Notes under the pieces: generated by a model
Database searches by the model: none
Told to the model about the DNA's origin: nothing
What the model saw: only the letters and a program-made list of their open reading frames with translations
Shown: piece by piece, positions 1 through 33,340 of the stretch
Position numbering within the stretch: position 1 is the stretch's first letter
Layout of the letters: each line of letters starts with the position of its first letter
Translations under genes and position numbers: made by a program
Source of the DNA: Clostridia bacterium
GTDB lineage: Bacteria; Bacillota; Clostridia; Oscillospirales; RGIG577
Assembly: GCA_017513095.1 (NCBI GenBank)
Contig: JAFWDJ010000022.1
Coordinates: 44,755-108,754, forward strand
Length of the DNA stretch: 64,000 bases
Direction: 5' to 3'

Positions 1-25
1 AATACTTCACAAGGGATAAAAAATT

Positions 26-946
26 ATGTCAACCGATCCGAAGGCCGTAACGGGCACTGTGTTCAATATTCAAAGGATGTCTGTAAACGACGGGCCGGGC
101 ATTCGCACGATCGTCTTTTTAAAGGGATGTCCGCTTCGCTGTCTGTGGTGCCATAACCCCGAATCGCAGTCGGCGCGCCCTGAGCTTTTCTACGTGCCGG
201 CGCGCTGCATCGGCTGCGGCGAATGCGTAAAGGTATGTCCCTCGGGCGTCCACGTTATGAGAGACGGCATACACGAGCTCGACCGCACGAACTGCACCGT
301 ATGCTTTAAATGCGTCGACGCCTGCGTGGGCGCGCTTGAGATAAGCGGCCGCACGATGAGCGCGGGCGAGGCCGTGGACGAGGTAAAAAAAGACAGGCTT
401 TTTTACGAAAAATCGGGCGGCGGCCTTACCGTTTCGGGCGGGGAGCCGACGTTTCAGGCGGATTTTACGCGGGCGCTTCTGTCGCTTGCCCGCGCGGAGG
501 GAATAAACACCTGCATCGAGACCGCCGGATTCTGCCCGGAGGATACGATAAAGAGCCTTGTGCCGCTCGTCGATCTCTTTTTATACGACATAAAGGAGAC
601 CGACTCCGCGCGCCACAGAGAGTATACGGGCGCGCCGCTTGAGCCGATTTTGCGAAATCTTAAGGTGATAGACGATATGGGCGCAAAAACGGTCATACGC
701 TGCCCCGTTATACCCGGATTTAACGACCGCGAGGAGCATTTCGCGGCCGTGGGAGAGCTTGCGTCGGGCCTTACGAACGTTATGGGCATAGACGTTATGG
801 CCTATCATCCGCTCGGAGAGAGCAAGGCCGCTTCCGTTGGGAAAAAGTACCCCCTTTCGGACGTTGCCATGCCCGCCGACGAGACGATCGCGCGCTGGAT
901 ATCGTCGATAGCCGCGCACACCGACGTACCCGTCAAACGCGGATAA
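26..946 (+). CDS. glycyl-radical enzyme activating protein (radical SAM activase, PflA/CutD-like)
   Basis: 306-aa ORF. Radical-SAM CxxxCxxC cluster in CPLRCLWCHNPES, two ferredoxin-type clusters (CIGCGECVKVCP; CTVCFKCVDAC), and a GGEPT motif. AAGGGA RBS lies upstream of the ATG. Confidence 0.9.
   Translation: MSTDPKAVTGTVFNIQRMSVNDGPGIRTIVFLKGCPLRCLWCHNPESQSARPELFYVPARCIGCGECVKVCPSGVHVMRDGIHELDRTNCTVCFKCVDACVGALEISGRTMSAGEAVDEVKKDRLFYEKSGGGLTVSGGEPTFQADFTRALLSLARAEGINTCIETAGFCPEDTIKSLVPLVDLFLYDIKETDSARHREYTGAPLEPILRNLKVIDDMGAKTVIRCPVIPGFNDREEHFAAVGELASGLTNVMGIDVMAYHPLGESKAASVGKKYPLSDVAMPADETIARWISSIAAHTDVPVKRG
524..946 (+). repeat. direct repeat copy 1 (last 423 nt of the activase gene, through its TAA)
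   Basis: Aligned by eye to 2151..2573: equal length, 8 substitutions in 423 nt. Homology begins at GCCGGATTCT and ends at the stop codon. Confidence 0.95.
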
Positions 947-953
947 CTTTTTG

Positions 954-993
954 CCGTGAAAGAGCCGAGAAAGGCTCTTTCACGGACTTTTTT
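954..993 (+). terminator. rho-independent terminator after the intact activase
   Basis: 13-bp stem CCGTGAAAGAGCC/GGCTCTTTCACGG with a 6-nt loop, followed by ACTTTTTTATTT. Confidence 0.75.
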
Positions 994-1297
994 ATTTGAT
1001 TTCCATTACATAAGAAGATTGGAGTGGCACGGGTTGTGATTTCACGCGGCATTATATCGTCTTTGCCAGCTTTGCTCTCAATCAGTCTTCTGCTTTTTTT
1101 ATAATGCCGCCAGTTTTCCTCGGATGATTGCCTATCTCATTCATTACTACTTCAACACATTCTTCATTTGTGAAAATACATCGATTAAGAGAAACTCTTT
1201 CAAAGTTATTGAGAAGCTCGGCTCTAAACTCAGCCTTAGATAGATTTAAATAATCCTTCAATTAAGACATCCATCCAACTATCGCTGTTTGTCTTAT

Positions 1298-1963
1298 TCA
1301 GATATTTTCACTCTTAGTAGTTATTTCTTCGTTACCATCAAAGGCTTGCGCACTTGCCTGTGCAATCATAACGTCATAATTCTGCACAATGAATTCCCGT
1401 TGTGCAGGAAGCTTCACCTTTGACATTCCTGCCTGATTAAGCTTTCCTTCACTATAAGTCATAATATAATCAATAGATTTCAGCAACTCATCCAAGGCAT
1501 GTCCAACTGCTCGCGGGTCAGAAGATGTATTTGCTATATCCTTGTAAATATCTATGCGTTCCAAATGGATATGTAACGCCTCAATTTCTTCTTGCGAAAG
1601 AATTCGTATTTCTTTTTCATGTTCTTTTGAAGAAGTACGTTCATGAAGCGTGTCGTGCCCGGCAATATGTGATTCTTTTTCTATAATAGTTGGCGATAGA
1701 TGATTCAAACGGGTATTTAAACTTCTAATTTCATTTTTTCGGCCTGCTGTGCTATTTTTTGCTTTTGTTTTCTTTTTACTTGCCGTTTTTTTCTTTCGTT
1801 TTTTTGATGGACCCATAAGAAATGCGTCTACAAGCTGCGAGCTGGCCTTGAGTAATCCTCCTATATCGGATCCTTTACGGCTCCGGTTTTTTGCCCTATA
1901 TAAATCTGACGCAGATATGAATTTCTTAGCCACTTTGTAAATCCCCCCTATCAACCGCTTCAT
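1298..1963 (-). CDS. hypothetical protein, Lys-rich N-terminal half, no recognisable family
   Basis: 221-aa ORF, the only long ORF in the AT-rich insert. It has a basic tract (KKRKKKTASKKKTKAK) and a helical acidic C-terminal half. No obvious Shine-Dalgarno precedes the ATG. Confidence 0.5.
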   Translation of the reverse strand: MKRLIGGIYKVAKKFISASDLYRAKNRSRKGSDIGGLLKASSQLVDAFLMGPSKKRKKKTASKKKTKAKNSTAGRKNEIRSLNTRLNHLSPTIIEKESHIAGHDTLHERTSSKEHEKEIRILSQEEIEALHIHLERIDIYKDIANTSSDPRAVGHALDELLKSIDYIMTYSEGKLNQAGMSKVKLPAQREFIVQNYDVMIAQASAQAFDGNEEITTKSENI

Positions 1964-2150
1964 TTTAGTTAGCTATCTATATGTATTTCGCCATGTATTT
2001 CGTCGCAACCGCGTAGGCATTCATTATATAAGATTATTATAAAAGTATATAATTCATATAACCTTATGCTTTATATTTAAAATACCATATGGCTACTGCA
2101 TTTTCAACTTTTTTTAAAAGTCGTCTCCCCCTTGACATGGGCCGTTTGAA

Positions 2151-2573
2151 GCCGGATTCTGCCCGGAGGATACGATAAAGAGCCTTGTGCCGCTCGTCGA
2201 TCTCTTTTTATACGACGTAAAGGAGACCGACTCCGCGCGCCACAGAGAGTATACGGGCGCGCCGCTTGAGCCGATTTTGCGAAGTCTTAAGGTGATAGAC
2301 GATATGGGCGCAAAAACGGTCATACGCTGCCCCGTTATACCCGGATTTAACGACCGCGAGGAGCATTTCGCGGCCGTGGGCAAGCTTGCGTCGGGCCTTA
2401 AGAACGTTATGGGCATAGACGTTATGGCGTATCATCCGCTCGGAGAGAGCAAGGCCGCCTCCGTGGGGAAAAAGTACCCCCTTTCGGACGTTGCCATGCC
2501 CGCCGACGAGACGATCGCGCGCTGGATATCGTCGATAGCCGCGCACACCGACGTACCCGTCAAACGCGGATAA
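2151..2573 (+). pseudogene. 5'-truncated duplicate of the activase gene (last ~141 codons only)
   Basis: 98% identical to 524..946. It lacks the radical-SAM N-terminus. The longest in-frame ORF (2187..2573, 128 aa) begins at a GTG with no RBS. Confidence 0.85.
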
Positions 2574-2590
2574 TAAAAGCCAATAATCAA

Positions 2591-2630
2591 AGAGATGCTT
2601 TGCAAATTTTGCAAAGCGTCTCTTTTTTCT
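2591..2630 (+). terminator. rho-independent terminator after the truncated activase copy
   Basis: 13-bp stem AGAGATGCTTTGC/GCAAAGCGTCTCT (one G-U pair) with a 7-nt loop, then TTTTTTCTCTTTTT. Confidence 0.75.
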
Positions 2631-2701
2631 CTTTTTCATTGAAAAAAGCGAGAAAAAAGAATATAATAATAAAGTTAAATAAAATTTTTACGGAGGCTGT
2701 T

Positions 2702-4093
2702 ATGGATTGCGCCTATAAGGAATATTTTGAAGGCTTAAAAGGGAAAAAGGTGGCGGTAATAGGTATCGGAATCTCGAACCTGCCGCTTATATATATGCTT
2801 CTGTCGTACGGCGCCGACGTCTGCGCGCGCGACAAAAAGTCGAAGGAGGCGCTTGGCGAAACGTATAACGAGCTTATACGCCGCGGCGCGCGCGTAGTTG
2901 CGGGCGACGATTATCTTTCGGACTTAAACGAGGAGATAATCTTTAAAACGCCCGGAATGCGCTACGACGTAAAGGAGCTTGTGCAGGCGCGAAAGAGAGG
3001 AAGCGCCGTGACGAGCGAGATGGAGGTCTTTATGGAGCTCTGCCCCGCGCGCGTTTTCGCGGTCACCGGCTCCGACGGAAAGACGACGACGACCACGCTC
3101 ATTTACGAAATGCTCAAAAAAGAGGGCTATACCTGCCATCTTGGCGGCAACATCGGCGCGCCGCTGCTTCCTAAGATAGCCGAGATAAAAAAAGAAGACA
3201 TGGTCGTTTTGGAGCTTTCGAGCTTTCAGCTTCAGACGATGAAAAAAAGCCCCGAGGCGGCGCTGATTACGAATATCACGCCTAATCATCTCGATTATCA
3301 CAAATCAATGGAGGAATACGTCGAGGCGAAGAAGCACGTGTATCTTTATCAGAAAGCCGGCGCGCGCCTCGTTTTGAACCGCGACAACAGTATAACCGAC
3401 GCGCTTTACGGCGAGATAGGCGAAGAATGCGAAAAGCTCGGCTTTTCGAAGAAGCTGCGCGGCGCGGACGGCGCGTATCTCGACGACGGCGATATCTATA
3501 TGATAAAAGACGGCAAAAAAACGCGCGTAATGAGCCGCGAAGACATATACCTTCCCGGTATGCACAACGTTGAGAATTACCTTGCGGCCATCGCCATGGT
3601 ATGGGGATACGTAACGCCGGAGAATATCGTTTACACGGCGCGAAACTTTACGGGCGTGCAGCACAGGATAGAGCCCGTAAGGGAGCTTCACGGCGTGCGC
3701 TATTACAACGATTCGATAGCCTCGAGCCCCACGAGAACGCTTGCGGGCCTCAATTCGTTCGACCAAAAGCTCATTCTTATCGCGGGCGGCTACGACAAGA
3801 ACCTCGATTACACCGTTATGGGCGACGTGCTTATTGAAAAGGTAAAGACGCTTGTGCTCACGGGAGCCACGGCGGGAAAAATAGAGGCGGCCGTAAGGGA
3901 GAACAAAAACTACAAAGGAAAGCCCGAAATAATCCGCGCGCAGAGCTTTAAGGACGCCGTGCTTGCGGCGCGGGACGCAGCAAAAGAGGGCGATATAGTC
4001 ATACTTTCGCCCGCTTCGGCAAGCTTTGATCTCTTTAAAAACTTTGAGGAAAGAGGAAACGAGTTTAAGCGTATCGTAAACGAATTAAACTGA
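2702..4093 (+). CDS. murD: UDP-N-acetylmuramoylalanine--D-glutamate ligase
   Basis: Same frame as track ORF 2600..4093, but 2600-2630 is the upstream terminator. The first ATG with an RBS (ACGGAGG) is 2702 (MDCAYKEYFEG). N-terminal GIGISN Rossmann motif and Mur-ligase P-loop VTGSDGKTTTT. Confidence 0.9.
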   Translation: MDCAYKEYFEGLKGKKVAVIGIGISNLPLIYMLLSYGADVCARDKKSKEALGETYNELIRRGARVVAGDDYLSDLNEEIIFKTPGMRYDVKELVQARKRGSAVTSEMEVFMELCPARVFAVTGSDGKTTTTTLIYEMLKKEGYTCHLGGNIGAPLLPKIAEIKKEDMVVLELSSFQLQTMKKSPEAALITNITPNHLDYHKSMEEYVEAKKHVYLYQKAGARLVLNRDNSITDALYGEIGEECEKLGFSKKLRGADGAYLDDGDIYMIKDGKKTRVMSREDIYLPGMHNVENYLAAIAMVWGYVTPENIVYTARNFTGVQHRIEPVRELHGVRYYNDSIASSPTRTLAGLNSFDQKLILIAGGYDKNLDYTVMGDVLIEKVKTLVLTGATAGKIEAAVRENKNYKGKPEIIRAQSFKDAVLAARDAAKEGDIVILSPASASFDLFKNFEERGNEFKRIVNELN

Positions 4094-4105
4094 CGCATAA
4101 CTGAT

Positions 4106-5143
4106 ATGAAAACAGACGAACTTCTTAAAATATTATGCAGTGCCGACGGCATATCGGGCTTTGAGGACGATACGGCCGCGCTTGCATCGGAGCTTCTTCG
4201 TGACGCGGGCGCGGACAGTGTTTACACCGACGCGCTCGGAAGCGTGCACGCCGTATTCGAGCCGCAGGGCGAGCCTGTGCGCACCGTGCTCCTTGACGCG
4301 CATATGGACGAGGTGGGCCTCATGGTCAGCGGCATATGCGACAACGGAATGCTGAAATTTGTAAGCATCGGCGGCATCGACGCGCGCGTTCTGCCCGCCA
4401 TGCGAGTGAAAATTCACGGCAGGCGCGACTATTTCGGCGTCATCACGAATCTGCCGCCGCATATCACAAGCTCGGCCGATTATAAAAAGGCCGTCCCGCC
4501 GGACGAGATGTTCATAGACGCGGGGCTTTCGCACGATGAGGCGTGCGAAAATATCGCCGTAGGCGACGCCGTAAGCTTTTTTACGCCCGCGGGTATGCTT
4601 TTAAACGAGCGGTATCTTTCAAAGGCGCTCGACGACCGTTCGGGCATGGCGGCGATAATGTACGCGTCGGAAAGGCTTCGCGGAAAGCTCGGGAGCACGC
4701 GCGTTCACGTGCTTTTTTCAACGCAGGAGGAGTTCTCGCTCTCCGGCGCGAGCGCGGGAGCGTACGCATCCGGGGCCGATATGTGCGTCTGCGTCGACGT
4801 GGGACACGCGAAAACGCCCGACTCAAAATCCGACGACACGTTCGAGCTTGCGGGCGGGCCGATGATCGGCGTCGCGCCGAGCCTTAAAAAAAGCATGTCG
4901 GACGAGCTTCGCGCGCTTGCCGAAACGCTTGGCATCGAGCATCAGATCGAGGTGATGGGCGGCTCGTCGGGCACGAACGCCTGGAGCATCGCCATCGCGG
5001 GGCGCGGCATACCGTGCGCTTTGATATCAATACCGCTTCGGTATATGCACACGGGCGCGGAAGCGGCCGCCGTTTCTGATATAACGGCCGTGGGCGAGCT
5101 TCTTTCAGAGTACGTTATGTCAAAGGATAAGGAGGGATCATGA
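4106..5143 (+). CDS. M42 family metallopeptidase (glutamyl aminopeptidase/TET/FrvX-like), paralog 1
   Basis: 345 aa. Motifs HMDEVG, ALDDRSG, TQEEF and RYMHT are typical of M42. Confidence 0.88.
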   Translation: MKTDELLKILCSADGISGFEDDTAALASELLRDAGADSVYTDALGSVHAVFEPQGEPVRTVLLDAHMDEVGLMVSGICDNGMLKFVSIGGIDARVLPAMRVKIHGRRDYFGVITNLPPHITSSADYKKAVPPDEMFIDAGLSHDEACENIAVGDAVSFFTPAGMLLNERYLSKALDDRSGMAAIMYASERLRGKLGSTRVHVLFSTQEEFSLSGASAGAYASGADMCVCVDVGHAKTPDSKSDDTFELAGGPMIGVAPSLKKSMSDELRALAETLGIEHQIEVMGGSSGTNAWSIAIAGRGIPCALISIPLRYMHTGAEAAAVSDITAVGELLSEYVMSKDKEGS

Positions 5144-6177
5144 CCGTGGAGCTTATAGAAACGCTGTGCCGCATCCCAGGGGTCACGGGAGACGAGGCGG
5201 CCGTTGCGGCTGAGATTGAGTGCCGCATGAGTACTGCGGGATGCGAGACCTCATATGATAAAATGGGCAATCTCATCGTAAAAAAGAAGGGAAAAATGCG
5301 CCCGAAAACGCCCGTGACGCTGTACGCGCACATGGACGAGGTAGGGCTTATCATATCGAAGATAGATAAGGACGGCTTTCTTCGCTTCAAGACCGTCGGG
5401 GGCATAGACCCGCGCGTGCTTTTATCAAAGACCGTGTTCGTAGGCGAAAAGCGCGTGCGCGGCGTTATCGGCGTAAAGGCCGTGCACCTTCAGACGAAGG
5501 AGGCGCGCGAAAAGGCGCCCGAGACGGATAAAATGTATATCGACATAGGCGCGCGCGACGAAGAGGACGCAAAAAACCACGTAAGATTGGGCGACTTTGC
5601 GTCCTTCGACGACGACATTGTATATTTCGGGCAGCGGCGCGTATGCGCGAAGGCGCTTGACGACCGCGCGGGCTGCGCCGCGATAATCGAGACGCTCTCG
5701 GGAGAGCTTTTATACGACGCGAAGGCCGTATTCACCGTGGGCGAGGAGATAGGCACGCGCGGCGCGCGCGTCGGCGCGGCAGAAGCCGACGGCGGCGTGG
5801 CTGTGATAATAGAGACGACGACGTGCGCCGATTTCGACGGCGTGCCGGAGAATAAAAAGGTCACGCGGCTGGGTGAGGGCCCCGCGATATCGTTTATCGA
5901 CAACTCAACGTTCTACGACCCGGCTCTCGTAAGATTCGCGCTCTCGTGCGCGACGGAGAACGATATTACGCATCAGGTGAAAAAGAGCGGCGCGGGCGGC
6001 AACGACGCGGGCGCGGTGTCGCAGGGCTTCGGCGGGCACAAGGTCTTAAGCGTGTCCATGCCGTGCCGGTATCTTCATTCGCCGTCGAGCGTTATATCGC
6101 TTGACGATTACGACAATACGAAGCGGCTCATCGCCGCGCTCATAATTAAATTGGGGGAACAGGGCTATGAATATTGA
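5140..6177 (+). CDS. M42 family metallopeptidase, paralog 2
   Basis: 345 aa. Motifs HMDEVG, ALDDRAG, GEEIG and RYLHSP. There is a 4-nt ATGA overlap with paralog 1. Confidence 0.88.
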   Translation: MTVELIETLCRIPGVTGDEAAVAAEIECRMSTAGCETSYDKMGNLIVKKKGKMRPKTPVTLYAHMDEVGLIISKIDKDGFLRFKTVGGIDPRVLLSKTVFVGEKRVRGVIGVKAVHLQTKEAREKAPETDKMYIDIGARDEEDAKNHVRLGDFASFDDDIVYFGQRRVCAKALDDRAGCAAIIETLSGELLYDAKAVFTVGEEIGTRGARVGAAEADGGVAVIIETTTCADFDGVPENKKVTRLGEGPAISFIDNSTFYDPALVRFALSCATENDITHQVKKSGAGGNDAGAVSQGFGGHKVLSVSMPCRYLHSPSSVISLDDYDNTKRLIAALIIKLGEQGYEY

Positions 6178-7156
6178 TACTTCGCTTTTATTAAAACTTT
6201 GCTCTGCCTTCGGCCCGTCGGGACATGAGGGCGGAATATCGGAGCTTATAGCGTCCGAGCTTCGCGGCCTTGCCGACGAGATTTATACGGACGCGCTCGG
6301 CAATCTCGTTGCAAGAAGGAAGGGCGCGGGAAAGCGCGTCATGCTGGCCGCTCATATGGACTCCGTGGGGCTTATCGTAACGAATATTACCGAGGACGGC
6401 TTTTTATACTGCGCGCCGGTTGGCGGCGTGTCGCCGTTTTACGCGCTTTCGGGATACGTCCGCTTCGAGTCGGGCGTGCGCGGCGTTATAATGTGCGGCA
6501 CAAAGACGAAGCGCGCGGAGCTGAAGCTTTCCGACATGTTCATAGACGTAGGCGCGCGCGACGAAAAGGAAGCGGCAGCTTTGGTAAACGTGGGCGACGC
6601 CTGCATTATAGAGCACGAGGGCTTTATACAGAACGGGCGCGTTTTTTCGAATTTTTTAGATGACCGCATCGGCTGCTTCGTGCTCATAGAGGCGTTCAAA
6701 CGCCTTAAAGAGACCGAAAACGACGTATATTTCGTATTCACCGTTCAGGAGGAGCTGGGGCTTCGCGGCGCGCGTGCCGTTTCGTATGCGATAGCGCCCG
6801 ACCTTGCGCTGAGCGTGGACGTTATGACGGCGCCCGATACGCCCGATTCGTCGGGGCACGGCCTTGTAATAGGCGGCGGCGTCGGAATAAAGGTAAAGGA
6901 CGGCTCCGTCATCACTCACAGAGAGGTGCGCATGAAACTTACCGACATAGCGCGCGAGTGCGGCATAAAGCATCAGCTGGAGGTGGCGCCCTCGGGCGGC
7001 ACGGACGCGGGCGCGATCCATGTAAGCCGCGCCGGAGTTAAAACGGGCGGCCTTTCCGTACCGTCGCGCTACACGCATTCGGCGGGCGAGTGCATAGACC
7101 TTGCGGACGCCGAGGCGGCGATAAGCCTTCTTTCCGAGTTTGCGGCAAGACAGTAA
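6167..7156 (+). CDS. M42 family metallopeptidase, paralog 3
   Basis: 329 aa. Motifs HMDSVG, FLDDRIG, VQEELG and RYTHS. There is an 11-nt overlap with paralog 2. Confidence 0.88.
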   Translation: MNIDTSLLLKLCSAFGPSGHEGGISELIASELRGLADEIYTDALGNLVARRKGAGKRVMLAAHMDSVGLIVTNITEDGFLYCAPVGGVSPFYALSGYVRFESGVRGVIMCGTKTKRAELKLSDMFIDVGARDEKEAAALVNVGDACIIEHEGFIQNGRVFSNFLDDRIGCFVLIEAFKRLKETENDVYFVFTVQEELGLRGARAVSYAIAPDLALSVDVMTAPDTPDSSGHGLVIGGGVGIKVKDGSVITHREVRMKLTDIARECGIKHQLEVAPSGGTDAGAIHVSRAGVKTGGLSVPSRYTHSAGECIDLADAEAAISLLSEFAARQ

Positions 7157-7209
7157 AAAATACAATAAAAATTCCGCGGCGGCGGGATTTTTATTTAAGG
7201 AGACCTTAC

Positions 7210-8472
7210 ATGTTTGAAATAGACGAAAAAGTAAAAAAGCTCTGCCGCGAAGCCGAGGAGAGCCTAAGTGAGCAGTTTTCGCGCATAGACGCGATTTGTA
7301 AATACAACACCGAAAAGGTGCATCACGCCTTTTATAAGAACCGCGTGAGCGAAACGCATTTCATCGGCACGACGGGATACGGATACTCGGACCGCGGCCG
7401 CGACGACCTTGACCGCGTTTACGCCGACGCCTTCGAATGTGAGGACGCGCTCGTGCGCCATTCGATAGTTTCGGGCACGCACGCGCTCGACGTTGCGCTT
7501 TTCGGCCTTCTTCGGCCCGGGAAAACGCTCCTTTCGATAACGGGAAAGCCCTACGACACGCTCGACGAGATAATAGGCATTGCGGGGAAAAAGGGGCAGG
7601 GCTCGCTTATAGACTTCGGCGTAAATTACAGGCAGGTGGAGCTTAAAGACGGCCGCATAGACACAGACGCGGCCATAGCCGCGATGGACGACTCCGTGAG
7701 CGTCGTATTCGTGCAGCGCTCGAAGGGCTACGCCTCCGACCGCCGGACGCTTACGTCTTGGGAAATAGGCGAAGCGGCGCGAAAAATAAAGGAAAAATAC
7801 CCGAACGCGGCCGTTTTAGTCGACAACTGCTACGGCGAATTCGTCGAGGAGCACGAGCCCGTTTATTACGGCGCGGACGTTATCGTAGGCTCGCTTATAA
7901 AGAACCCCGGCGGAAGCCTTGCGAAGGGCGGCGGATATATGGCGGGACGCGCCGATCTTATCGAGCTTATCTCGTACAGACTCACGTCGCCCGGAATCGG
8001 GCGCGAGGTGGGCGCGTCGATGGGTCAGAATCTCGATATGTACCGCGGCTTTTACATGGCGCCGCACATAACGGCGCAGGCGCTTAAAACGAGCGTATTC
8101 TGCGCCGAGGTTTACAGGCGGCTCGGCTTTTCGGTAAGTCCCGCGCCCGACGAAATAAGAAGCGACATAATCCTTGCGATAACGCTGGGAAGCGCCGAGC
8201 TTCTCTGCGCGTTCTGTCAGGGGATACAGATGGGCGCGCCCGTCGATTCGTTCGTAAGGCCCGAGCCGTGGGATATGCCCGGTTATCAGGATAAGGTCAT
8301 AATGGCGGCCGGCGCGTTCATACAGGGCGCGTCCATTGAGCTTTCCGCAGACGGCCCGATGAGGGAGCCGTTTATAGCGTACGTTCAGGGCGGCATAACG
8401 TGGGAGAGCGGGTATCTCGGCGTCATGCTTTCGGTCGAGAAGCTTTACTCCGAGGGACTTATAAAAATTTAA
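7210..8472 (+). CDS. methionine gamma-lyase family / aluminium-resistance (YnbB-like) PLP protein
   Basis: Track ORF 7090..8472 overlaps the preceding gene. The ATG at 7210 follows AAGGAGA (MFEIDEKVKKL). Its position just upstream of hflX matches the ynbB-hflX context known from Bacillus. Family assignment is from overall similarity recalled by eye. Confidence 0.75.
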   Translation: MFEIDEKVKKLCREAEESLSEQFSRIDAICKYNTEKVHHAFYKNRVSETHFIGTTGYGYSDRGRDDLDRVYADAFECEDALVRHSIVSGTHALDVALFGLLRPGKTLLSITGKPYDTLDEIIGIAGKKGQGSLIDFGVNYRQVELKDGRIDTDAAIAAMDDSVSVVFVQRSKGYASDRRTLTSWEIGEAARKIKEKYPNAAVLVDNCYGEFVEEHEPVYYGADVIVGSLIKNPGGSLAKGGGYMAGRADLIELISYRLTSPGIGREVGASMGQNLDMYRGFYMAPHITAQALKTSVFCAEVYRRLGFSVSPAPDEIRSDIILAITLGSAELLCAFCQGIQMGAPVDSFVRPEPWDMPGYQDKVIMAAGAFIQGASIELSADGPMREPFIAYVQGGITWESGYLGVMLSVEKLYSEGLIKI

Positions 8473-8561
8473 CGCGCGAAAAAAGTGTTTTTTGAGTGAA
8501 GCGGAGTATTAAATATATAGACGGGTATTTTTTAAGAGAATTTTTGATTTGAATTTATTTT

Positions 8562-9830
8562 ATGGACGAAAAAAATACGCACGAACGCGAAAAAGCCGTA
8601 TTGGTCGGCGTTGAATTTACGACGGCGGGATTTAAGGGCAGCAGCCCCGAGAGCTTAACGGAGCTTTCGAGGCTTCTTGATACGGCGGGCGGAGAGACGG
8701 TGTTCACCGTTTTTCAGAAGCGTCCCGCACCCGACCCCGCAACCTTCGTGGGCGAAGGAAAGACCGAGGAGATAAAGCGCGCCGCGGAAGAGCTCGACGC
8801 TTCGCTCGTCGTTTTCGACGCGGAGCTTAAGCCCACGCATATTAAGAACCTTTCGGATGAGCTCGGACGCATGGTTATAGACAAAAGCACGCTCATACTC
8901 GACATATTCGCGCTTCACGCGACGACGCGCGAGGGAAAGATAGGCGTTGAGCTTGCGCAGCTTAAATATCAGCTGCCGAGGCTTCTCGGCATGGGACGCG
9001 ACCTTTCGCGCCTCGGCGGCGGCATAGGCACGCGCGGCCCCGGCGAAACGAAGCTTGAGACGGACCGGCGCCATATCCGCGCGCGCATAGAGATGCTCGA
9101 ACGCGAGCTTTCTGACATCGAGCGCACGCGCGCCGTACAAAGAAAGGCGCGCGCGAAGAGCACGACGCCGAAAATCGCCATAATAGGCTACACGAACGCC
9201 GGCAAATCGACGCTTTTAAACTACCTAACTGACGCGGGCGTGCTTGCGGAGGACAAGCTCTTCGCAACGCTTTCCACAACGACGAGGCGCTTAAAAATTT
9301 CCGACACGTGCGAGGCGCTCGTCTCCGACACGGTAGGCTTTATAAACGACCTGCCGCGCCACCTTTTCGAGGCGTTCGCCTCGACGTTCGACGAGCTTCG
9401 TCACGCCGATCTTTTCTGGCACATAGTCGACGTGTCCGACGAGAACCACAAAGACCAGATGAAGGCCGTGCATGAGCTTATCGCGCGCATGGACGCGGAG
9501 GCGACGGATATTATAACCGTTTACAATAAGTGCGACCGAAATCCCTGCGAACGGCTCGATTTTTCGGGCGACGCCGTATATATTTCGGCACTTACGGGCG
9601 AGGGCGTGCCGGCGCTTTTGGGGCTTACAGAAAAGAAGCTTCAAAGCCGAAAAAAAGAAGTAAGCCTTCTTATTCCGTACGACAGGGGCGGCCTTTTAAA
9701 TCTGCTGCACGAAAAGTCGAGGATTAAATCCCTGGAATACCGGGACACGGGCGCTGCGGTAACGGCGATAGTCGACGCCGAGACATACGGTAAGGTAAGG
9801 GACTGCGAGGTATCTTACGATGGAGTATAA
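8562..9830 (+). CDS. hflX: GTPase HflX
   Basis: 422 aa with an HflX N-terminal domain. G1 is GYTNAGKST, G3 is DTVGF, G4 is NKCD. Confidence 0.92.
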   Translation: MDEKNTHEREKAVLVGVEFTTAGFKGSSPESLTELSRLLDTAGGETVFTVFQKRPAPDPATFVGEGKTEEIKRAAEELDASLVVFDAELKPTHIKNLSDELGRMVIDKSTLILDIFALHATTREGKIGVELAQLKYQLPRLLGMGRDLSRLGGGIGTRGPGETKLETDRRHIRARIEMLERELSDIERTRAVQRKARAKSTTPKIAIIGYTNAGKSTLLNYLTDAGVLAEDKLFATLSTTTRRLKISDTCEALVSDTVGFINDLPRHLFEAFASTFDELRHADLFWHIVDVSDENHKDQMKAVHELIARMDAEATDIITVYNKCDRNPCERLDFSGDAVYISALTGEGVPALLGLTEKKLQSRKKEVSLLIPYDRGGLLNLLHEKSRIKSLEYRDTGAAVTAIVDAETYGKVRDCEVSYDGV

Positions 9831-10437
9831 AACGGTAAAAAGCGAGGCTACGGGCGAATTCATAGAAAAGCGTTCGCGCTTTTTATGCCACGTAAAGCCC
9901 GTCTCAACGTCCGAGGAGGCCGTCGCGTTCATAAACGAAAAAAAGTCGAAATACTGGGACGCGACGCATAACGTCTATGCGTATATACTGCGCGAGGGCG
10001 GCATAATGCGCTACTCCGACGACGGCGAGCCGCAGGGCACTGCGGGACAGCCCGCGCTTGAGGTCTTGCGCCGCGAGGAGCTTTACGACCTCGTCGTAGT
10101 CATAACGCGCTATTTCGGCGGCATAATGCTCGGCGCGGGCGGCCTTGTGCGCGCTTACGCGAGAGGCGCAAAGGAGGCCGTTGCGGCCGGAGGCATTGCC
10201 CTTATGTGCCTCTGCGACGAATGCGAGCTTACCGTGGGGTACGCGCAGTACGAGCAGACGAAGAACCTTCTTTCGGACATGGGCGCCGTCGTTACGGATA
10301 CGGGATACGCGGACAACGTAAAGATTTCGTTTTATATAAAGAAAAGCGACACAGAAAAATTTGCGGCCGCTCTTACCGAGCAAACGAACGGTACGGCCGC
10401 CCCAAAGGTTTTGGGGGAAAGATTTATGCCTATCTGA
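9820..10437 (+). CDS. yigZ: YigZ/IMPACT family protein (UPF0029)
   Basis: 205 aa. Contains KSRFL...HNVYAY...DDGEPQGTAG...RYFGG, characteristic of the IMPACT N-terminal domain. It overlaps the hflX stop by 11 nt. Confidence 0.85.
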   Translation: MEYKTVKSEATGEFIEKRSRFLCHVKPVSTSEEAVAFINEKKSKYWDATHNVYAYILREGGIMRYSDDGEPQGTAGQPALEVLRREELYDLVVVITRYFGGIMLGAGGLVRAYARGAKEAVAAGGIALMCLCDECELTVGYAQYEQTKNLLSDMGAVVTDTGYADNVKISFYIKKSDTEKFAAALTEQTNGTAAPKVLGERFMPI

Positions 10438-10449
10438 GGAGGCGCCTCT

Positions 10450-11466
10450 ATGACGATAAAGGACAGGATAGAGCTTACGGAGGAGCAAATTCTTTCGCCG
10501 TACGCGGCGAAGAGCAAAAGCGCGACGCGAAGCGCGCCCGACACGCCAAACGATATGCGCGGCGAGTTTCAGCGCGACCGCGACAGGATAATACACTCAA
10601 AGGCATTCAGACGCCTTATGCATAAAACGCAGGTCTTCATCTCGCCGCAGGCTGACCATTACCGCACGCGGCTTACGCATACGTTCGAGGTAATGCAGAT
10701 AGCGCGCTCGATAGCGCGGGCGCTTATGTTAAACGAGGACCTGACCGAGGCGATATCGCTCGGCCATGATCTCGGCCACACGCCGTTCGGCCATGCGGGG
10801 GAGCGCGCGCTGTCGGAGCTTTTTCGTGACGAGGGACGCTTCGACCACGCCGACCAGAGCGTGCGAGTCGTGCGCATCCTTGAAAAGGACGGGCGCGGGC
10901 TCAATCTTACGGAGGAGGTCTGCGACGGGATACAGAATCATTCGACGGGACGGCGGGCCAAAACGCTCGAGGGACGCATTGTAAATCTTGCGGACAAGAT
11001 AGCCTATATAAATCACGACATAGACGACGCGATAAGCGCGGGCGTGCTGTCCGCCGACGCGCTGCCCGGGGAGCTCACTGCGGTATTCGGCAATACGGGG
11101 CGCGCGCGCATCGACACGATGATACGCTCGGTCGTGGACCACAGCACGGGCCGTGACGACGTACAGATGGAGCCGTCGGCGCTTCACGCCATGTATGAAT
11201 TAAGACGGTTCCTCTTTGAAAACGTATACAACAACCCGAAGGTGCGCGGCGAGGAGCCGAAGGTCCATTCGCTCATCATACAGCTTTTCGAGTATTTCAC
11301 GTCGCATCCCGAAAGGCTTCCCAAGGATTACACCTTCGTTATCGAGCGCGACGGCGTGCGCACGGCCGTGCGCGACTATATCGCCGGCATGACCGACAGA
11401 TACGCGCTTGAGATGTATAAATCGCTGTTTTTGCCGAAGTCGTTTACCATGAAGGGAAACGAATAA
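10450..11466 (+). CDS. dgt: dGTP triphosphohydrolase-like HD-domain protein
   Basis: 338 aa. Motifs RTRLTHTFEV, HDLGHTPFGH and NHDIDDA. It sits upstream of dnaG, as in many Firmicutes. Confidence 0.88.
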   Translation: MTIKDRIELTEEQILSPYAAKSKSATRSAPDTPNDMRGEFQRDRDRIIHSKAFRRLMHKTQVFISPQADHYRTRLTHTFEVMQIARSIARALMLNEDLTEAISLGHDLGHTPFGHAGERALSELFRDEGRFDHADQSVRVVRILEKDGRGLNLTEEVCDGIQNHSTGRRAKTLEGRIVNLADKIAYINHDIDDAISAGVLSADALPGELTAVFGNTGRARIDTMIRSVVDHSTGRDDVQMEPSALHAMYELRRFLFENVYNNPKVRGEEPKVHSLIIQLFEYFTSHPERLPKDYTFVIERDGVRTAVRDYIAGMTDRYALEMYKSLFLPKSFTMKGNE

Positions 11467-11489
11467 AAAAAGAAAAATAAAGGCGGGAG

Positions 11490-13253
11490 GTGAACGGCGT
11501 GGATACGATTGGACGCGAGACCCTGGCCGACATACGCGCGGCCTGCGATATCGCGGATATAGTTTCGCAGTATGTGACGCTTACGAAAAGCGGCAGCGGA
11601 TATTTAAAGGGGCTTTGCCCTTTTCATTCCGAGAAAACGCCGTCGTTTACCGTAACGCCCGCGAAGGGCATATACAAATGCTTCGGCTGCGGCGAAAGCG
11701 GCGACGTTATAACGTTTATAATGAAAATAGAGGGCCTTGAATTTGTCGAGGCCGTGAAATTTTTGGCGCAGAAGGCCAATATTGAAATAAAAGTGAGCGG
11801 CGAGGACGAGGCGCGCATGAAACGACGGCGCACCCTTTACGATATTAACCGCGACGCGGCGAGATATTACTACTCGGTACTGACGCGCGACGACAAAAAC
11901 GACGGTATCGCGTACCTGAGACGCCGCGGGCTTGGCGACAAGCTCATCCGCACCTACGGCCTCGGGTTTGCCCAAAACGCGTGGGACGGACTTACGAAGC
12001 ACCTTTTGGGGCTCGGATACGCGCCCGATATGCTTACGGAGCTCGGCCTTGCGGTCAAAAACAAGTCGGGCGGACTTTACGACCGTTTCCGAAACCGCGT
12101 GATGTTTCCGATAATCGACATATCGGGCAACGTGATAGGCTTCGGCGGGCGCACGGTGTCCGGCGAGGGCGCGAAATACTTGAATTCGCCGGAAAGCCCG
12201 ATATTTAAAAAGAGCGAGAACCTGTTCTCCTTAAATTTCGCCAAGGCCCAAAAGAGCGACACGCTCATATTGGCGGAGGGGTACATGGACGTTATATCGC
12301 TTTACGGCGCGGGCTTTAAGAATGCCGCGGCGTCGCTCGGAACGTCCCTTACGGCGCAGCAGGCGCGTCTTGCGGCGCGGTACTTTAAAAAGATAGCCAT
12401 CGCCTACGATTCCGACAGCGCGGGACGCGCGGCCTCAGTAAAGGCGCTGAACCTTTTTTCCGATTTGAGCGTCGAGGTAAAGGTACTCGACTTAGGCGAC
12501 AAGAAGGACCCCGACGAATTTATCCGCGCGTACGGCGCGGGCGCGTTCTCAAAGCTTTTCGACTCGTCAAAGGGGTACATAGATTACGCGCTTTACGAGC
12601 TTGCCCAAAAGAACGACATAAGAGAGCCGCAGGGCAAGGTGGGCTTTCTTCGCGGCGCGGCGCGCATACTTGCCGAGGTGCAAAGCTCGCTCGAACGCGA
12701 CGTGTACACGGCGAAGATCGCGAACGAGTACGAGGTTTCGCGCGAGGCGCTCGAGGGCGAAATCCGGCGCATTGCCAAACTGAACAGGCGGCAGGCCGAA
12801 ACGAAGCGAAAGCGCGAGCTTATATCGCCGGGGCCGAAAAAAACGGCTCCGCCGACGCCCGAACAGCTTATCCTTTCGATACTCTACGACGAGCCGACGC
12901 TCTGCGGCGAGATCGAGGGAAGGCTTTCGCCCGGGGACTTAAAAAGCGAGACGGACGCAAAGATACTTAAATATATCATTAAGGCTTACGAAGGCGGCCG
13001 CCTTCCCGATATATCGGAGGCGCACGGCGAGCTTTCGGCGGATGAGGTGTCATACCTCGCCTCGATTGTCGGGAACAGCTTTTCCGACAGAAAGGGAACG
13101 CTTTTCGACCTTGTATCAAAGCTTGAGGAGGAGCGCCTAAAGGCGCAGAGCGCCGAAGGCGGCGGAAGCGAGGCCGAATGGGTTAAGCATCTTAAAAAGA
13201 AAAAAGCAGGCAACTCTGAAAAGAAGGATGGAGATAAATATGGCAGAAGATAA
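11490..13253 (+). CDS. dnaG: DNA primase
   Basis: 587 aa. Zinc-ribbon [11 protein letters not shown]...CFGCGESGD and TOPRIM EGYMDV...DSDSAG. The start is a GTG at 11490; 11499 is also possible. GGGAGGTG lies just upstream. Confidence 0.92.
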
Positions 13254-14319
13254 GACCAATATTTTAAAGGACCTGATGGAAACGGCGAAAAAGCGCGGCA
13301 GCATGTCCAATAAAGAGATACTCGACATGCTGGAGGACGTCGATATCGACGTCGAGGTCATGGAAAAGCTCTACGAGACTTTTGAAAGTCTCGGCATAGA
13401 GATAATACCCGACGTTGAGGAGATATCGCCGGAGGATCTGGCGATACCCGACCTGCAGAGCGATTCGTCGCAGGCCTCGGGCGACGCATTGGCGATAGAC
13501 GACCCCGTCAGGATGTACTTAAAGGAGATAGGCAAGGTAAACCTTTTGTCGGGCGATGAGGAGATAGAGCTTGCAAAGCGCATGGCCGAGGGCGACGAGG
13601 AGGCCAAAAAGAGGCTGGCTGAGGCGAATCTCAGGCTCGTCGTAAGCATCGCGAAGCGCTACGTCGGCCGCGGAATGCTCTTTTTGGACCTTATCCAGGA
13701 GGGCAACATGGGCCTTATAAAGGCCGTGGAGAAATTCGACTATACGCGCGGCTATAAGTTCTCCACGTACGCGACGTGGTGGATACGCCAGGCGATAACG
13801 CGCGCTATTGCCGACCAGGCGCGCACGATACGCATACCCGTGCACATGGTCGAAACGATAAACAAGATAATAAGAGTATCGCGTCAGCTTCTTCAGGAGC
13901 TCGGTCACGACCCGCAGCCGGAGGAGATAGCAAAAGAGATGAACATGCCGGTCGAGAAGGTGCGCGAGATAATGAAGATAGCCCAGGAGCCGGTGTCGCT
14001 TGAGACGCCGATAGGCGAGGAGGAGGACAGCCATCTCGGTGACTTTATACAGGACAACGACTCGCCCGAGCCCGCGATAGCCGCGGCGGAAACGCTTTTA
14101 AAGGAGCAGCTTGCCGAGGTATTAAAGACGCTTACCGAGCGTGAGGCCACCGTGCTTCAGCGCAGATTCGGCCTTATCGACGGCCGCGCGCGCACGCTCG
14201 AGGAGGTAGGAAAGGAATTTAACGTAACGCGCGAGCGCATACGCCAGATAGAGGCAAAGGCTTTAAGAAAGCTTCGTCATCCCAGCCGCTCCAAACGGCT
14301 CAAGGACTTTTTGGATTAG
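13240..14319 (+). CDS. rpoD: RNA polymerase primary-type sigma factor (RpoD/SigA), copy 1
   Basis: ATG at 13240 follows AAGGATGGAG. RpoD box [27 protein letters not shown], and regions 1.2, 2, 3 and 4.2 ([24 protein letters not shown]). Confidence 0.93.
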
Positions 14320-14341
14320 AATGTGATTTTCGGAGGAAAGC

Positions 14342-15469
14342 ATGGCTGACGATAAGAATATAATCCTAAGCAGAATAATGTCCCTTGTCAAAGAAAAGGG
14401 CAGCATAACGAATAAGGATATGCTCGACATTCTTGACGAGGTCGATATAGACGTTGACGCCGTCGAAAAGCTCTACGATACGCTCGAGAGCATGGGCATA
14501 AAGATAACGGGCGATTTCGACGAGCCTTTTGATTTGGGCGAGGACGATTTTTCCGAGGAAGGCGGGGAGGGCGAGGAAGGCGGAGAGCCTTCGCCCCGCG
14601 CGGGCGTATCCGACGCGGACCGCCTCGTATACGATCCCGTGAAAATGTATCTTCGCGAGATAGGCAGCATACCGCTTCTGTCGGCGACGGACGAAACGAC
14701 GCTCGCCGAGCGCATGGCACAGGGCGACGCGGAGGCGCGAAACGAGCTCATAGAGGCAAACTTAAGGCTTGTCGTAAGCATTGCAAAGCGCTACGTCGGC
14801 CGCGGAATGCCGTTTTTGGACCTCATACAGGAGGGCAACATAGGCCTTATGAAGGCCGTTGAAAAATTCGATTATACGCGCGGCTACAAATTCTCCACGT
14901 ACGCGACGTGGTGGATACGCCAGTCGGTCTCGCGCGCGATAGCCGATCAGGCGCGCACGATACGCATACCCGTACATATGGTGGAGTCGATAAACAAGAT
15001 AAACCGCGTTTCGCGCCGCCTTACTCAGGAGCTTGGACACGAGCCCACGCCCGAGGAGATAGCGCACGAGCTTTCGATGAGCCCCGAAAGAGTGAGCGAC
15101 ATTATGAAGCTTGCGCAGGAGCCTGTGTCTTTGGATATGCCGATAGGCGAGGAGGACGACGGTACCTTGGGCGACTTTATAAAGGATTCCGATTCGCCCG
15201 ACCCCGAGTATCTCGCCGCGCTTCAGATGCTCAAGGCTCAGATAGAGGACGTGCTTACGAAGCTTACGCCCAGGGAGGCGGAGGTAATACGCATGAGATT
15301 CGGGCTTATGCCCGACGGACGCATACGCACGCTTGAGGAAACGGGAATATACTTCAACGTGACGCGTGAGCGCGTGCGCCAGATTGAGGCAAAGGCATTA
15401 AGAAAGCTTCGCCATCCGAGCCGTTCAAAGCAGCTTCGCGACTTTTACGTCTATCAAAAGGGCTTTTAG
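14342..15469 (+). CDS. RNA polymerase primary-type sigma factor, tandem paralog
   Basis: 375 aa, 22 nt downstream of copy 1, with a GGAGGA RBS. It has the same region 2-4 signatures ([27 protein letters not shown]; [24 protein letters not shown]). There is an extra Gly/Glu-rich segment in the N-terminal region. Confidence 0.92.
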
Positions 15470-15517: not shown

Positions 15518-15826
15518 AAGTTGTGGCTTTAAGTATGGCTGCGCTAACCGGGGAGGCAGCGGCCCCCTGTCGCCTGCAATCCGCTATAGCAGGGGTGAAT
15601 CCCCGTTTGAGGGGCGCGTCGGTGTGGCCGGTCTTTTGTAAGTGGTTATGACGAATTGGTCTTGTGCAACAGAAACCTGTGAACCTTGTCAGGCGGGGGA
15701 CCGAGCAGCAATAAGCAGTGATTTTTGTGTGCCGCAAGGCAGCCTGTTCCGAGCTAACTGCAAAATCAACGCATGTCGTCGCCGTTTCGAGAACGGGTGC
15801 GCAGTCTTACTTAGAGCCGCAGCTTT
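15518..15826 (+). ncRNA. ffs: signal recognition particle RNA, long Bacillus-type (with Alu domain)
   Basis: Alu-domain sequence GGGGAGGCAGCGG...CCUGCAAUCCGCUAUAGCAGGGGUGAAUCCCC and domain IV GUGAACCUUGUCAGG-CGG-GGGA-CCG-AGCAGC closely parallel B. subtilis scRNA. The 5' AAGUUGUGGCUUUAAG pairs with the 3' CUUAGAGCCGCAGCUU. Location directly upstream of dnaX is conserved synteny. Ends are approximate. Confidence 0.93.
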
Positions 15827-15850: not shown

Positions 15851-17659
15851 ATGTATCAGGCATTATACCGCAGATACCGTCCCAAGGTATTTGCGGACGT
15901 GGTAGGTCAGGATCATATAACGACTACGCTGAAAAACGAAATAAAAGAGGGGCGCATAGCCCACGCGTATCTCTTTACGGGCACGCGCGGCACGGGAAAA
16001 ACGACGTGCGCTAAAATTTTCGCGAAGGCCGTAAACTGCCTTTCGCCCCGCGACGGGGAGCCGTGCGGCGAGTGCAGCGTCTGCCGCGCCATAGAAAACG
16101 AGAGCATACTCGACGTTATAGAGATGGACGCCGCCTCTAATTCGGGCGTCGACAACATACGCGACCTTATCGACGATATAAGCGTTTCGCCGATGACGGC
16201 GAAGTATAAGGTTTACATAATCGACGAAGTGCACGCGCTTTCGGCGAACGCGTTCAACGCGCTTTTAAAAACGCTCGAGGAGCCGCCCGCCCACGCCATA
16301 TTCATATTGGCCACGACGGAGGTGCACAAGCTGTCGGCAACGATACTTTCGCGCTGCCAGCGATTCGATTTCAGGCGCGTGTCGGCTGATACGACAGCGG
16401 GCGTGCTTTCGCGCGCGCTTACGTCATCGGGCATACCGTTCGACGACGAAGCCGTGCTGGAGGTGGCGAGACTCGGAAACGGCTCCGTGCGCGACGCGCT
16501 GTCCGTGCTCGAACGCTGCATCTCCGCGAATGAGCGCCTGACGCGCGAACACGTTCTTTCGACGCTCGGAATGGCGAGCGACGAGATGCTTATGACCTTC
16601 ATGGACTGCTTTTATAAGAAGGATCTAACGCGCGCCCTCTCGCTTTCTGAGGAGGCGTACAACGAGGGCAAGAATATAAGCGTCATCTGTGAGCGCCTTA
16701 TCTGGATGTGCCGCTGCGTACTTGTGGCAAAGTCCGAAAAAGAGGGCGCGGCGCTTATAAAGAACACCGAAAGCAGCGCGGACGCGATAATCGCGTTTTC
16801 GAAGCGTGCCGTACTGACCGACGTGCTCCGGTGGGCGAAGGAGCTTTCGGAAACGCTCGACAGGCTGCCGAGAAGCATATCGGAGCGCATCGCGTTTGAA
16901 ATGTGCCTGATACGCCTCTGCGAAAGGCGCTTATCCGGGGACGAGGAAACGCTCGGTGAGCGAGTGGCAAGACTCGAGGACATGATAGCCTCGGGCAGCA
17001 TTGCGTTTGCCGCCGACGATACGCCGAAGGCGGAAACACCCGCGTCGAAGGCGGATAAACCAGCACAGAAGGCGGAAACACCCGCACCGAAGGCGGAAAC
17101 ACCCGCGTCGAAGGCGGAAAGACCCGCGCCGAAGGCGGAAACACCCGCGCCGGAGGCGGATAAATCAGCGCCGAAGGCTGACCCCCCCGCGCCGAAGGCG
17201 GAAACTCCTGCGCCGGAGCCCGAAAAAGAGGCGCCGGAGCCCGAAAAAGAGGCGCAGGCCGACGTTCAGCCGGCCGAGGAGCCCGACCCCGACGAAAAGC
17301 CCGCCGACGATACGGCGGAGGACGGCCTTCCCTTCGGAAGGTACGCAAAAACGATAGCCGAGGTCATGAAAAAAGACCCGATGACGGGCAGCATGCTTAA
17401 AAACACGGCCGCGTATGCGTATAAGACGCATATAGAGATAGTCTGCCCCAACGGCTTTACGAGGGACATGGTAAACGACGCAAAGAAGCTCATTGAGAGC
17501 GTCATATCGGCGCAGCTCGGCAAAAAGATGAAGATGGAGGCCGTGACGGGGGAAATAAAGCCCCGCGCCCGCGCAAAAAAGACGCCGGAGCCCGACCCGC
17601 TCGATTTAATAATTGAGTACGACGAGGAAAGAAACGTAAGCTTAGACGATTTAAAATAA
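15851..17659 (+). CDS. dnaX: DNA polymerase III subunit gamma/tau
   Basis: 602 aa. Walker A GTRGTGKTT, DEVH box, zinc module CGECSVC, and a Pro/Ala/Lys/Glu-rich repeat linker. Confidence 0.94.
   Translation: MYQALYRRYRPKVFADVVGQDHITTTLKNEIKEGRIAHAYLFTGTRGTGKTTCAKIFAKAVNCLSPRDGEPCGECSVCRAIENESILDVIEMDAASNSGVDNIRDLIDDISVSPMTAKYKVYIIDEVHALSANAFNALLKTLEEPPAHAIFILATTEVHKLSATILSRCQRFDFRRVSADTTAGVLSRALTSSGIPFDDEAVLEVARLGNGSVRDALSVLERCISANERLTREHVLSTLGMASDEMLMTFMDCFYKKDLTRALSLSEEAYNEGKNISVICERLIWMCRCVLVAKSEKEGAALIKNTESSADAIIAFSKRAVLTDVLRWAKELSETLDRLPRSISERIAFEMCLIRLCERRLSGDEETLGERVARLEDMIASGSIAFAADDTPKAETPASKADKPAQKAETPAPKAETPASKAERPAPKAETPAPEADKSAPKADPPAPKAETPAPEPEKEAPEPEKEAQADVQPAEEPDPDEKPADDTAEDGLPFGRYAKTIAEVMKKDPMTGSMLKNTAAYAYKTHIEIVCPNGFTRDMVNDAKKLIESVISAQLGKKMKMEAVTGEIKPRARAKKTPEPDPLDLIIEYDEERNVSLDDLK
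17026..17256 (+). repeat. in-frame tandem 21-bp repeats (11 units) inside dnaX
   Basis: Nine contiguous units of GAAGGCGGAAACACCCGCGCC-like sequence (KAETPAP heptads) plus two units of GGAGCCCGAAAAAGAGGCGCC, in exact 21-nt register from 17026. Confidence 0.9.
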
Positions 17660-18654: not shown

Positions 18655-18870
18655 GTCAAAAAAGGGCCAGACCGCCGAAAAAAGAGAATATTAAGTGCGA
18701 AATACCTTGTGCAGATGTTTTTCGCGGCAAGATTTTCTGCTCGCCGCTTCAAAGAAGCTTTTGCGCCGTAACCTTGCGGTTACGGCGTTTTCGGCTATAT
18801 GCCGATTGCCTTCTCTACCGTATAACATACGCCGACGCTCGGCAATCGACAATTCTGACCTCTTTTTTGC
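18655..18870 (+). repeat. ~217-bp intergenic repeat element, copy A (MITE/PATE-like, structured)
   Basis: It shares its first ~45 nt and last ~115 nt at about 95% identity with 33111..33327. Imperfect terminal inverted repeats are GTCAAAAAAGGGCCAGA and TCTGACCTCTTTTTTG(A/C)C. There are internal conserved hairpins. Confidence 0.85.
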
Positions 18871-18910
18871 CGCCCCGTCGGAGTTTGTTTAGAAAAAAGG
18901 AGGAGCATTC

Positions 18911-33327: not shown

Positions 33328-33340
33328 ACCCTGTCGCCCC

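Follow-up and report, generated by a model that had tools for sequence, protein, structure and literature searches.

A duplicated activase gene end around AT-rich DNA in a Clostridia bacterium: a probable case of Campbell-type insertion-duplication

How does DNA of foreign composition come to lie between two copies of the same gene end, with no enzyme of mobility encoded in it? The question is raised by a locus at the left end of a 64,000-nt stretch from a Clostridia bacterium (Bacillota; Clostridia; Oscillospirales; RGIG577; assembly GCA_017513095.1, contig JAFWDJ010000022.1, positions 44,755 to 108,754), which we call the window and whose numbering is used throughout. Here the 3' end of a glycyl-radical-enzyme activase gene occurs twice, and the DNA between the two copies carries a small module of two genes, A and B, ahead of murD. 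A preliminary description, drawn from the sequence by itself, had proposed the single-crossover (Campbell-type) integration of a small circle with a homologous gene fragment. We consider Campbell-type insertion-duplication via homologous recombination, at a locus that is still recombinationally active, to be the probable explanation, at a probability of roughly 0.6. The proposal gains support from an empty site, from contigs with circle or tandem junctions and from the absence of an activase upstream of murD in relatives, with contig evidence that is limited in extent.

The features of the region are as follows, each with its coordinates, strand and basis:

26-946, plus strand: intact glycyl-radical-enzyme activase gene, 306 aa (TIGR02494, E = 1.4e-103; Pfam Radical_SAM and Fer4)
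524-946, plus strand: repeat R1, the final 140 activase codons and the TAA, alleles AAAGCCTT (alignment)
947-1012, plus strand: native activase terminator, terminator 1, with its hairpin at 954-985 (homology to the sister lineage L171)
1052-1297, minus strand: pseudogene remnant of family B, its last ~80 codons (homology to residues 238-311 of protein P0005 and to the related locus L003)
1298-1963, minus strand: gene A, a 221-aa open reading frame (ORF), for which the GTG at 1933 is the probable start
1964-2150, minus strand: upstream region of gene A, 31.6% GC, its right end being the abrupt junction with R2
2151-2573, plus strand: repeat R2, an activase fragment lacking the 5' part, alleles GGCAAGCG, called by gene finders as a 128-aa ORF
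2574-2621, plus strand: stem region of terminator 2 (hairpin 2589-2625), specific to the lineage of the window and also present after the single repeat of contig L177
2622-4093, plus strand: murD promoter region and murD (2702-4093), where synteny with the relative L179 is back at ~2622

The duplicated end is confirmed, and stands well above chance expectation. When the window is aligned to itself, 524-946 and 2151-2573 form gapless direct repeats of 423 nt with 98.1% identity and eight substitutions (sites 590, 657, 754, 755, 774, 802, 832 and 838; as bases A>G, A>G, A>C, G>A, C>A, C>G, T>C and T>G), four of them synonymous and four changing an amino acid (I>V, N>S, E>K and T>K). The longest identical run between the copies is 108 nt. 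Homology sets in at GCCGGATTCT, in codon phase 0, the preceding 40 nt of the two copies being unrelated, and it ends at the common TAA, immediately past which the downstream sequences differ. A terminator-like hairpin lies just past each copy, and the two hairpins are different. GC content is 37.3% in the 1,204 nt between the copies (947-2150), compared to 57.2% in the repeat and 54.1% in the full window. R1 completes the 306-aa activase, downstream of a gene for a PFL-like glycyl radical enzyme (GRE) in the source contig L001, and R2 is a fragment only. The preliminary description had recorded the length of the repeats and their four synonymous and four nonsynonymous differences, the abrupt start and the halt at the stop codon, the differing hairpins, the AT-rich intervening DNA, and an intact upstream and a 5'-truncated downstream copy; all of these were reproduced.

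Metagenome contigs can mis-join or duplicate repeats, and an assembly artefact had been foreseen as one way in which the description could fail. The window lies within a 275,674-bp MEGAHIT contig (ENA ERZ28018703) from an assembly at k = 141; the longest exact run shared by the copies is shorter than k, and the assembly graph therefore separates them. Two further contigs of at least 50 kb hold an identical activase with the same neighbours. The same gene order is found in a 134-kb scaffold from a different sample (L174) and in a metagenome-assembled genome at NCBI, as the consecutive proteins MBR2743167 to MBR2743171. Window positions 917-2180 are matched exactly by a Logan unitig of 1,264 nt (SRR12529301), spanning the insert with 30 nt (k-1) of each repeat, and hence covers both inner junctions. 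The integrated form was counted in four long contigs and one Logan unitig in all. With at least four long contigs from different assemblies in agreement, and an exact unitig beside them, we regard a duplication made by assembly as extremely unlikely and set it aside.

The left border of the foreign DNA can be placed by comparison with a sister lineage (L171-L173), in which the activase is 91% identical in nucleotide sequence and is preceded by the same genes (FeoAB, EamA, BlaI/M56, GRE, activase). Homology to L171 at the nucleotide level spans window positions 1 to 1012, terminator 1 included, and then breaks; beyond the break the sister lineage has a tRNA-Arg(CCT) and a flavodoxin gene. Since this homology reaches 1012, the native terminator occupies positions 947-1012, and DNA of foreign composition is confined to 1013-2150. 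Of the insertion of about 1.2 kb first described, the initial 66 nt are thus not foreign. At 38% GC the cargo lies 19 points below the host gene (57%), and homologs of gene A in another host are likewise AT-rich. The spacer that follows the terminator in L171 is no more similar to the ends of the insert than are shuffled controls.

The cargo itself is a partly decayed module. It had been described as one orphan gene on the minus strand; the minus-strand gene is there, but it is not alone, as a stop-riddled remnant of family B lies downstream of gene A in the same frame. Gene A ends at the TGA at 1298-1300, and two in-frame stops (a TAA at 1262-1264, and another stop at 1082-1084) interrupt the remnant. 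Intact family B proteins have ~315 aa and a SAP domain. The two genes are neighbours in L167 and are fused in P0015, P0026, P0033 and P0039, and we therefore treat A and B as one module, of which the window copy is missing most of B. Translation of gene A probably begins at the GTG, giving a product of 211 aa that starts with MAKK as its homologs do; a GGGGGG run resembling a Shine-Dalgarno sequence lies 5' of this codon. Farther upstream, at 1964-2150, the minus strand holds a weak promoter-like site, with the first hexamer from 2107 and the second ending at 2079.

Family A proteins combine a Lys-rich N-terminus with a C-terminal domain that is conserved. In the homologs there is in addition a hydrophobic segment of ~40 residues that presumably spans the membrane; the window copy lacks it, and no transmembrane segment is hidden in the other reading frames of gene A. 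Profile and structure searches had been suggested for the 221-aa protein. A profile of the A domain found only 41 relatives in 1.84 billion representatives, and the domain is modelled as a four-helix bundle (predicted local distance difference test score, pLDDT, 88) for which no PDB structure scored better than E = 0.5. Among the 41, the only functionally informative relatives are the A-B fusions and a protein in which the A domain is joined to TM2, metallo-beta-lactamase and Ada zinc-binding domains. Searches of Pfam, PHROGs, NCBIfam and PADLOC gave no usable match bearing on the function of either gene; for B the only library matches are PDC-S31 (E = 0.002) and one PHROG of no assigned function, and its structure model is poor (pLDDT 61). 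The lone, weak phage match is a distantly related SAP-domain protein of Streptococcus prophage Javan617, located between the repressor and the integrase. This interval of a prophage is a typical place for accessory genes that are expressed in the lysogen.

The same libraries are silent on mobility. No match to an integrase, a transposase or Rep was found for the ORFs of the insert in Pfam, PHROGs, NCBIfam or PADLOC, nor any match to a recombinase for either ORF, for their intact homologs or for the A-B fusions. In 72,556 PLSDB plasmid records there was no nucleotide or protein match to indicate a plasmid origin, and in IMG/VR no match to indicate a viral one. Terminal inverted repeats are absent from the ends of the insert in the window sequence. 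The absence of an integrase, a transposase and such repeats, remarked on from the outset, is thereby upheld by library searches and sequence check alike. Several classes of element can be rejected on these and similar grounds. An insertion sequence or transposon would be without transposase and without inverted repeats at its ends, and the duplication is 423 nt, not short. The region has no reverse transcriptase, and the differences between the copies are not confined to the adenines of one of them, which speaks against a diversity-generating retroelement. An autonomous small plasmid finds neither a Rep nor a PLSDB match. Short attachment (att) cores do not fit repeats of 423 nt with haplotypes that vary over the whole length. 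Nor is a tRNA the insertion target in the window, as its 64 kb are free of tRNA genes; the tRNA-Arg of the sister lineage sits just past the synteny break.

If the two repeats recombine with one another, arrangements other than the integrated one would be expected. Additional contigs of the same species were recovered by exact-protein look-ups, and those that bear on this are:

L177, 1,382 nt: activase 5' part, repeat, terminator 2 and start of murD, which is the empty site; alleles AACAACTT
L175, 1,633 nt: insert-right, repeat, insert-left; alleles AAAGCCTT
L176, 1,559 nt (k141): insert-right, repeat, insert-left; alleles AAAGCCTT
L178, 727 nt (k141): insert-right, repeat, insert-left; alleles AGCAACTT
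L174: both repeat copies; alleles AAAGCCTT

The preliminary description had advised a search for the empty site and for excised circles or deletion variants, and candidates for both are among these contigs. In L177 a single activase is joined to terminator 2 and murD, with the 129-nt spacing of the window, flanks that are 100% identical to it and one private single-nucleotide polymorphism (SNP). L175, L176 and L178 have the order insert-right, repeat, insert-left. Such a junction would be expected in a circle of 1,627 bp and equally in a tandem array, between which such short contigs do not distinguish, and a mis-threaded repeat is also compatible with it. All bases of the 1,627-bp unit are present in L175. 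Private SNPs in L177 and L178 mark these as distinct strains. Between L174 and the window contig only the eight R2 sites differ over 18,760 compared bases, a pattern that suggests conversion of one copy by the other or else import into a single copy. Across the contigs the repeat haplotypes AAAGCCTT, GGCAAGCG, AACAACTT and AGCAACTT are found at differing positions. The ~2% divergence of the window copies had been taken as a sign of a related donor or of an old event; it is no clock, given that the copies are identical in one strain and that the alleles of others are mosaic.

These arrangements suggest the following sequence of events. The recipient chromosome would have had the activase, then terminator 2, then murD. 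The incoming unit would be the 1,627 bp that consist of a 423-bp activase 3' segment with its stop codon, the native terminator and the AT-rich A/B cargo, and it would recombine through the 423 bp that it shares with the 3' end of the activase on the chromosome. A single crossover of such a circle would yield the order intact activase, terminator 1, cargo, truncated activase copy, terminator 2 and murD. The bracketing is of this kind in the window: R1 continues the native activase frame, and R2 leads into terminator 2 and murD as the lone repeat does in L177. With the stop codon inside the homology, such an event leaves the host gene whole. Later recombination between the repeats could delete the unit, leaving the empty site, could release or amplify it, producing the circle or tandem junction, or could convert one copy to the other. 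The unit encodes no mobility, and host homologous recombination is thus the likely engine. We infer the circular intermediate, the dependence on RecA, the direction of the original event and the donor from these arrangements. Whereas the integrated form is seen in long contigs, the other three junction combinations are read from short contigs only, and each would be a state of the locus if those contigs are correctly assembled.

What, then, weighs against Campbell-type insertion-duplication? The contigs that show the empty site (L177 alone) or the circle junction are only 0.7-1.6 kb long and run across a repeat of 423 nt, and where a strain has identical copies assemblers can mis-thread the in-edges and out-edges of that repeat; the identical copies of L174 could themselves be a bubble collapse. 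Several of the assemblies behind these contigs probably belong to one ruminant study and may not all be independent. L175 and L176 come from different assemblers, yet both end at window position 1733, with no overlap of length k that would close a circle. The ends of L175 overlap by 6 nt (ATTTCA) and it restarts at 1728, while L176 restarts at 1802. The break at 1733 falls inside gene A, before a T6 run and a Lys-rich low-complexity stretch, at the place where homologs switch to their hydrophobic stretch; possible causes are variation in length, an insertion that duplicated 6 bp of its target, or a single set of reads that was assembled two times. A one-ended homologous join of linear DNA, completed by an illegitimate one, would give the same product with no circle. 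Moreover, the cargo may have been resident for long, with the empty site arising from it by later deletion, terminator 1 being native and gene B being present in L003, or the duplication could be a by-product of the rearrangement of a 12-kb block of Feo, GRE and activase genes relative to L179.

The last two points lead to the main rival, for which the neighbourhoods of relatives are informative. In L179, with a MurD 84% identical to that of the window, the order is S6, SSB, S18, DUF4013, murD and three M42 peptidases. Synteny with the lineage of the window is lost 55 nt past S18 and regained at 2622, so that ~12 kb stand in the place of DUF4013 (L001 positions 527-12596), comprising the Feo/BlaI-M56/GRE/activase block, the module, R2 and the stem of terminator 2. 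The same 10-kb block occurs in L171 in another context, with the tRNA-Arg(CCT) after it. In L180 and L181 (MurD 72% identical) murD is preceded by prophage-like genes (terminase, P22-type portal) and a thioesterase; the region upstream of murD is variable within this clade. Scans of genomes and metagenomes with the activase found only one relative above 56% identity, L003 (77% protein identity), in which the 3' end of gene B lies convergent directly after the activase; the 128-aa fragment, used as a query in its turn, had no similar counterpart in other species. In L003, B is 78.8% identical to the window remnant in nucleotides and the activase 76%. With B about as diverged as the activase, and with terminator 1 native, the cargo may be an old resident. 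It is accordingly possible, if clearly less probable, that the A/B module has followed the activase and terminator 1 since before the split from L003, and that R2 was made in situ by a duplicative or illegitimate rearrangement of the 12 kb, with the empty site and the circle or tandem junctions as products of later recombination between the repeats and no circle ever inserted. Terminator 1 being common to L171, the replacement of DUF4013 between S18 and murD by ~12 kb that include module and R2, and the restriction of long contigs to the integrated form are all in its favour. Yet it calls for some unspecified event by which precisely the final 423 nt were copied, in frame to the stop, across the module. 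In the closer sister L171 terminator 1 is not followed by the module, the GC content of the cargo remains 19 points under that of the host gene, and L003, a contig of 2.4 kb, ends inside B and leaves only a partial arrangement to compare. This rival and Campbell-type insertion-duplication imply the same behaviour of the repeats at the present day.

Other accounts are less probable still. The A/B module may be a recombinase-free selfish cassette, a circle or amplifiable unit of ~1.6 kb that captured a gene 3' end as a homology arm for the RecA of its host; we offer this as speculation that is rather unlikely. If it were true, the presence of the module after the activase in two species would reflect repeated homology-guided targeting and not shared ancestry, and an arm with stop codon and terminator would permit insertion beside the activase with the gene unharmed. 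The preliminary description had also entertained an integrative element, inserted at the activase 3' end by its own integrase, that has since lost its recombinase. Elements that target and rebuild gene 3' ends are common, the module adjoins the activase in two species, and its cargo is partly decayed, B being truncated with in-frame stops. Against this, the 1.2 kb hold no recombinase remnant, and the decayed gene is that of a SAP-domain protein; the 423-nt repeat far exceeds the usual att duplications; and A/B homologs at five other loci have no flanking direct repeats. Intact A and B, one repeat and the intergenic stretches fill most of a ~2.3-kb unit, which therefore has scant room for an integrase. 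A degenerate site-specific element is thus very unlikely. Highly unlikely, too, is an origin of R2 as the remnant of a second GRE-activase locus before murD, with its 5' part destroyed by the AT-rich insertion, a possibility that had been flagged from the start. The abrupt 5' boundary of R2 does resemble the endpoint of a deletion or insertion, but L179, L180 and L181 have DUF4013, or prophage-like genes and a thioesterase, where this account would place an activase, and with none upstream of murD in these relatives a broken second paralog is improbable. The copies are moreover 98-100% identical, and L177 links a lone activase straight to murD.

Some further features of the window are recorded here in their own right. 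A bacterial large signal recognition particle RNA (RF01854, 197 bits) lies at 15539-15804, shortly after two neighbouring units of ~1.1 kb (13297-15446) that are 74-78% identical, which suggests tandem paralogous genes. At 16980-17273 a unit of 21 nt is repeated in tandem at least 10 times, in a kilobase with an unusually high AT skew (0.44). A repeat of ~148 nt with a GC-rich hairpin and no Rfam match occurs at 18733-18880 and 33190-33336, with 14.5 kb between the two copies and an identity of 82-90%. The kilobase that ranks second in the window for AT content (43382-44527, GC 0.40) holds an ORF of 381 aa whose N-terminus resembles a P-loop GTPase and whose C-terminus is hydrophobic and rich in glycine; it may be another acquired gene.

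How does the locus compare with known systems? A non-replicating plasmid with a gene fragment yields insertion-duplication, a standard outcome in laboratory mutagenesis. There, as here, direct repeats that match the homology segment stand on either side of the insert, a 3'-end fragment gives one intact gene and one 5'-truncated copy, and the event is reversible by recombination between the repeats, with tandem amplification possible. The present case differs in being apparently natural, in an uncultured rumen or gut Clostridia bacterium, and in having no vector backbone, replicon or marker, the donor circle being inferred from contigs only. Integrase-driven islands and prophages encode a tyrosine or serine recombinase and duplicate tens of bases only (for integrative and conjugative elements, see the review PMC5812530). 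Those at gene 3' ends share with the window unit a replacement 3' end that keeps the target intact and direct repeats at both borders, but the unit has no recombinase and a repeat of 423 nt.

Two systems of E. coli also bear comparison. In amplification-based heteroresistance, tandem amplification and deletion take place between direct repeats and need host recombination genes (PMC12892994). Direct repeats of a few hundred bases flank the unit there too, and the order insert-right, repeat, insert-left is the diagnostic amplification junction; the repeats are, however, usually insertion sequences or rRNA genes and the selection is known, whereas here the repeat is a duplicated gene end. The microcin H47 island is a recombinase-less unit of 13 kb with a known function and extensive imperfect direct repeats, and its mobility has been shown experimentally and is RecA-independent (PMC3191183, PMC5426353). 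Like the window unit it is small, has no integrase of its own and is flanked by long imperfect direct repeats, and its excision and integration yield hybrid repeats. Unlike in the window unit, the microcin H47 repeats are not a duplicated gene end. The locus is therefore best described as a natural case of a known type of structure and not as a novel kind of mobile element, with cargo from a rare family.

The locus offers a natural case in which genes come and go through ordinary homologous recombination, without an enzyme devoted to mobility. For each of its states, integrated, empty, looped-out or tandem, and converted, public metagenomes contain contigs that can be read in that way. It also brings to notice a rare two-gene family, made up of a helical-bundle protein that is presumably membrane-anchored and a SAP-domain protein, the two sometimes being fused. 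Tools that seek integrases or transposases miss such events, and the signature described here, a duplicated in-frame gene 3' end around compositionally foreign DNA, could expose more cases.

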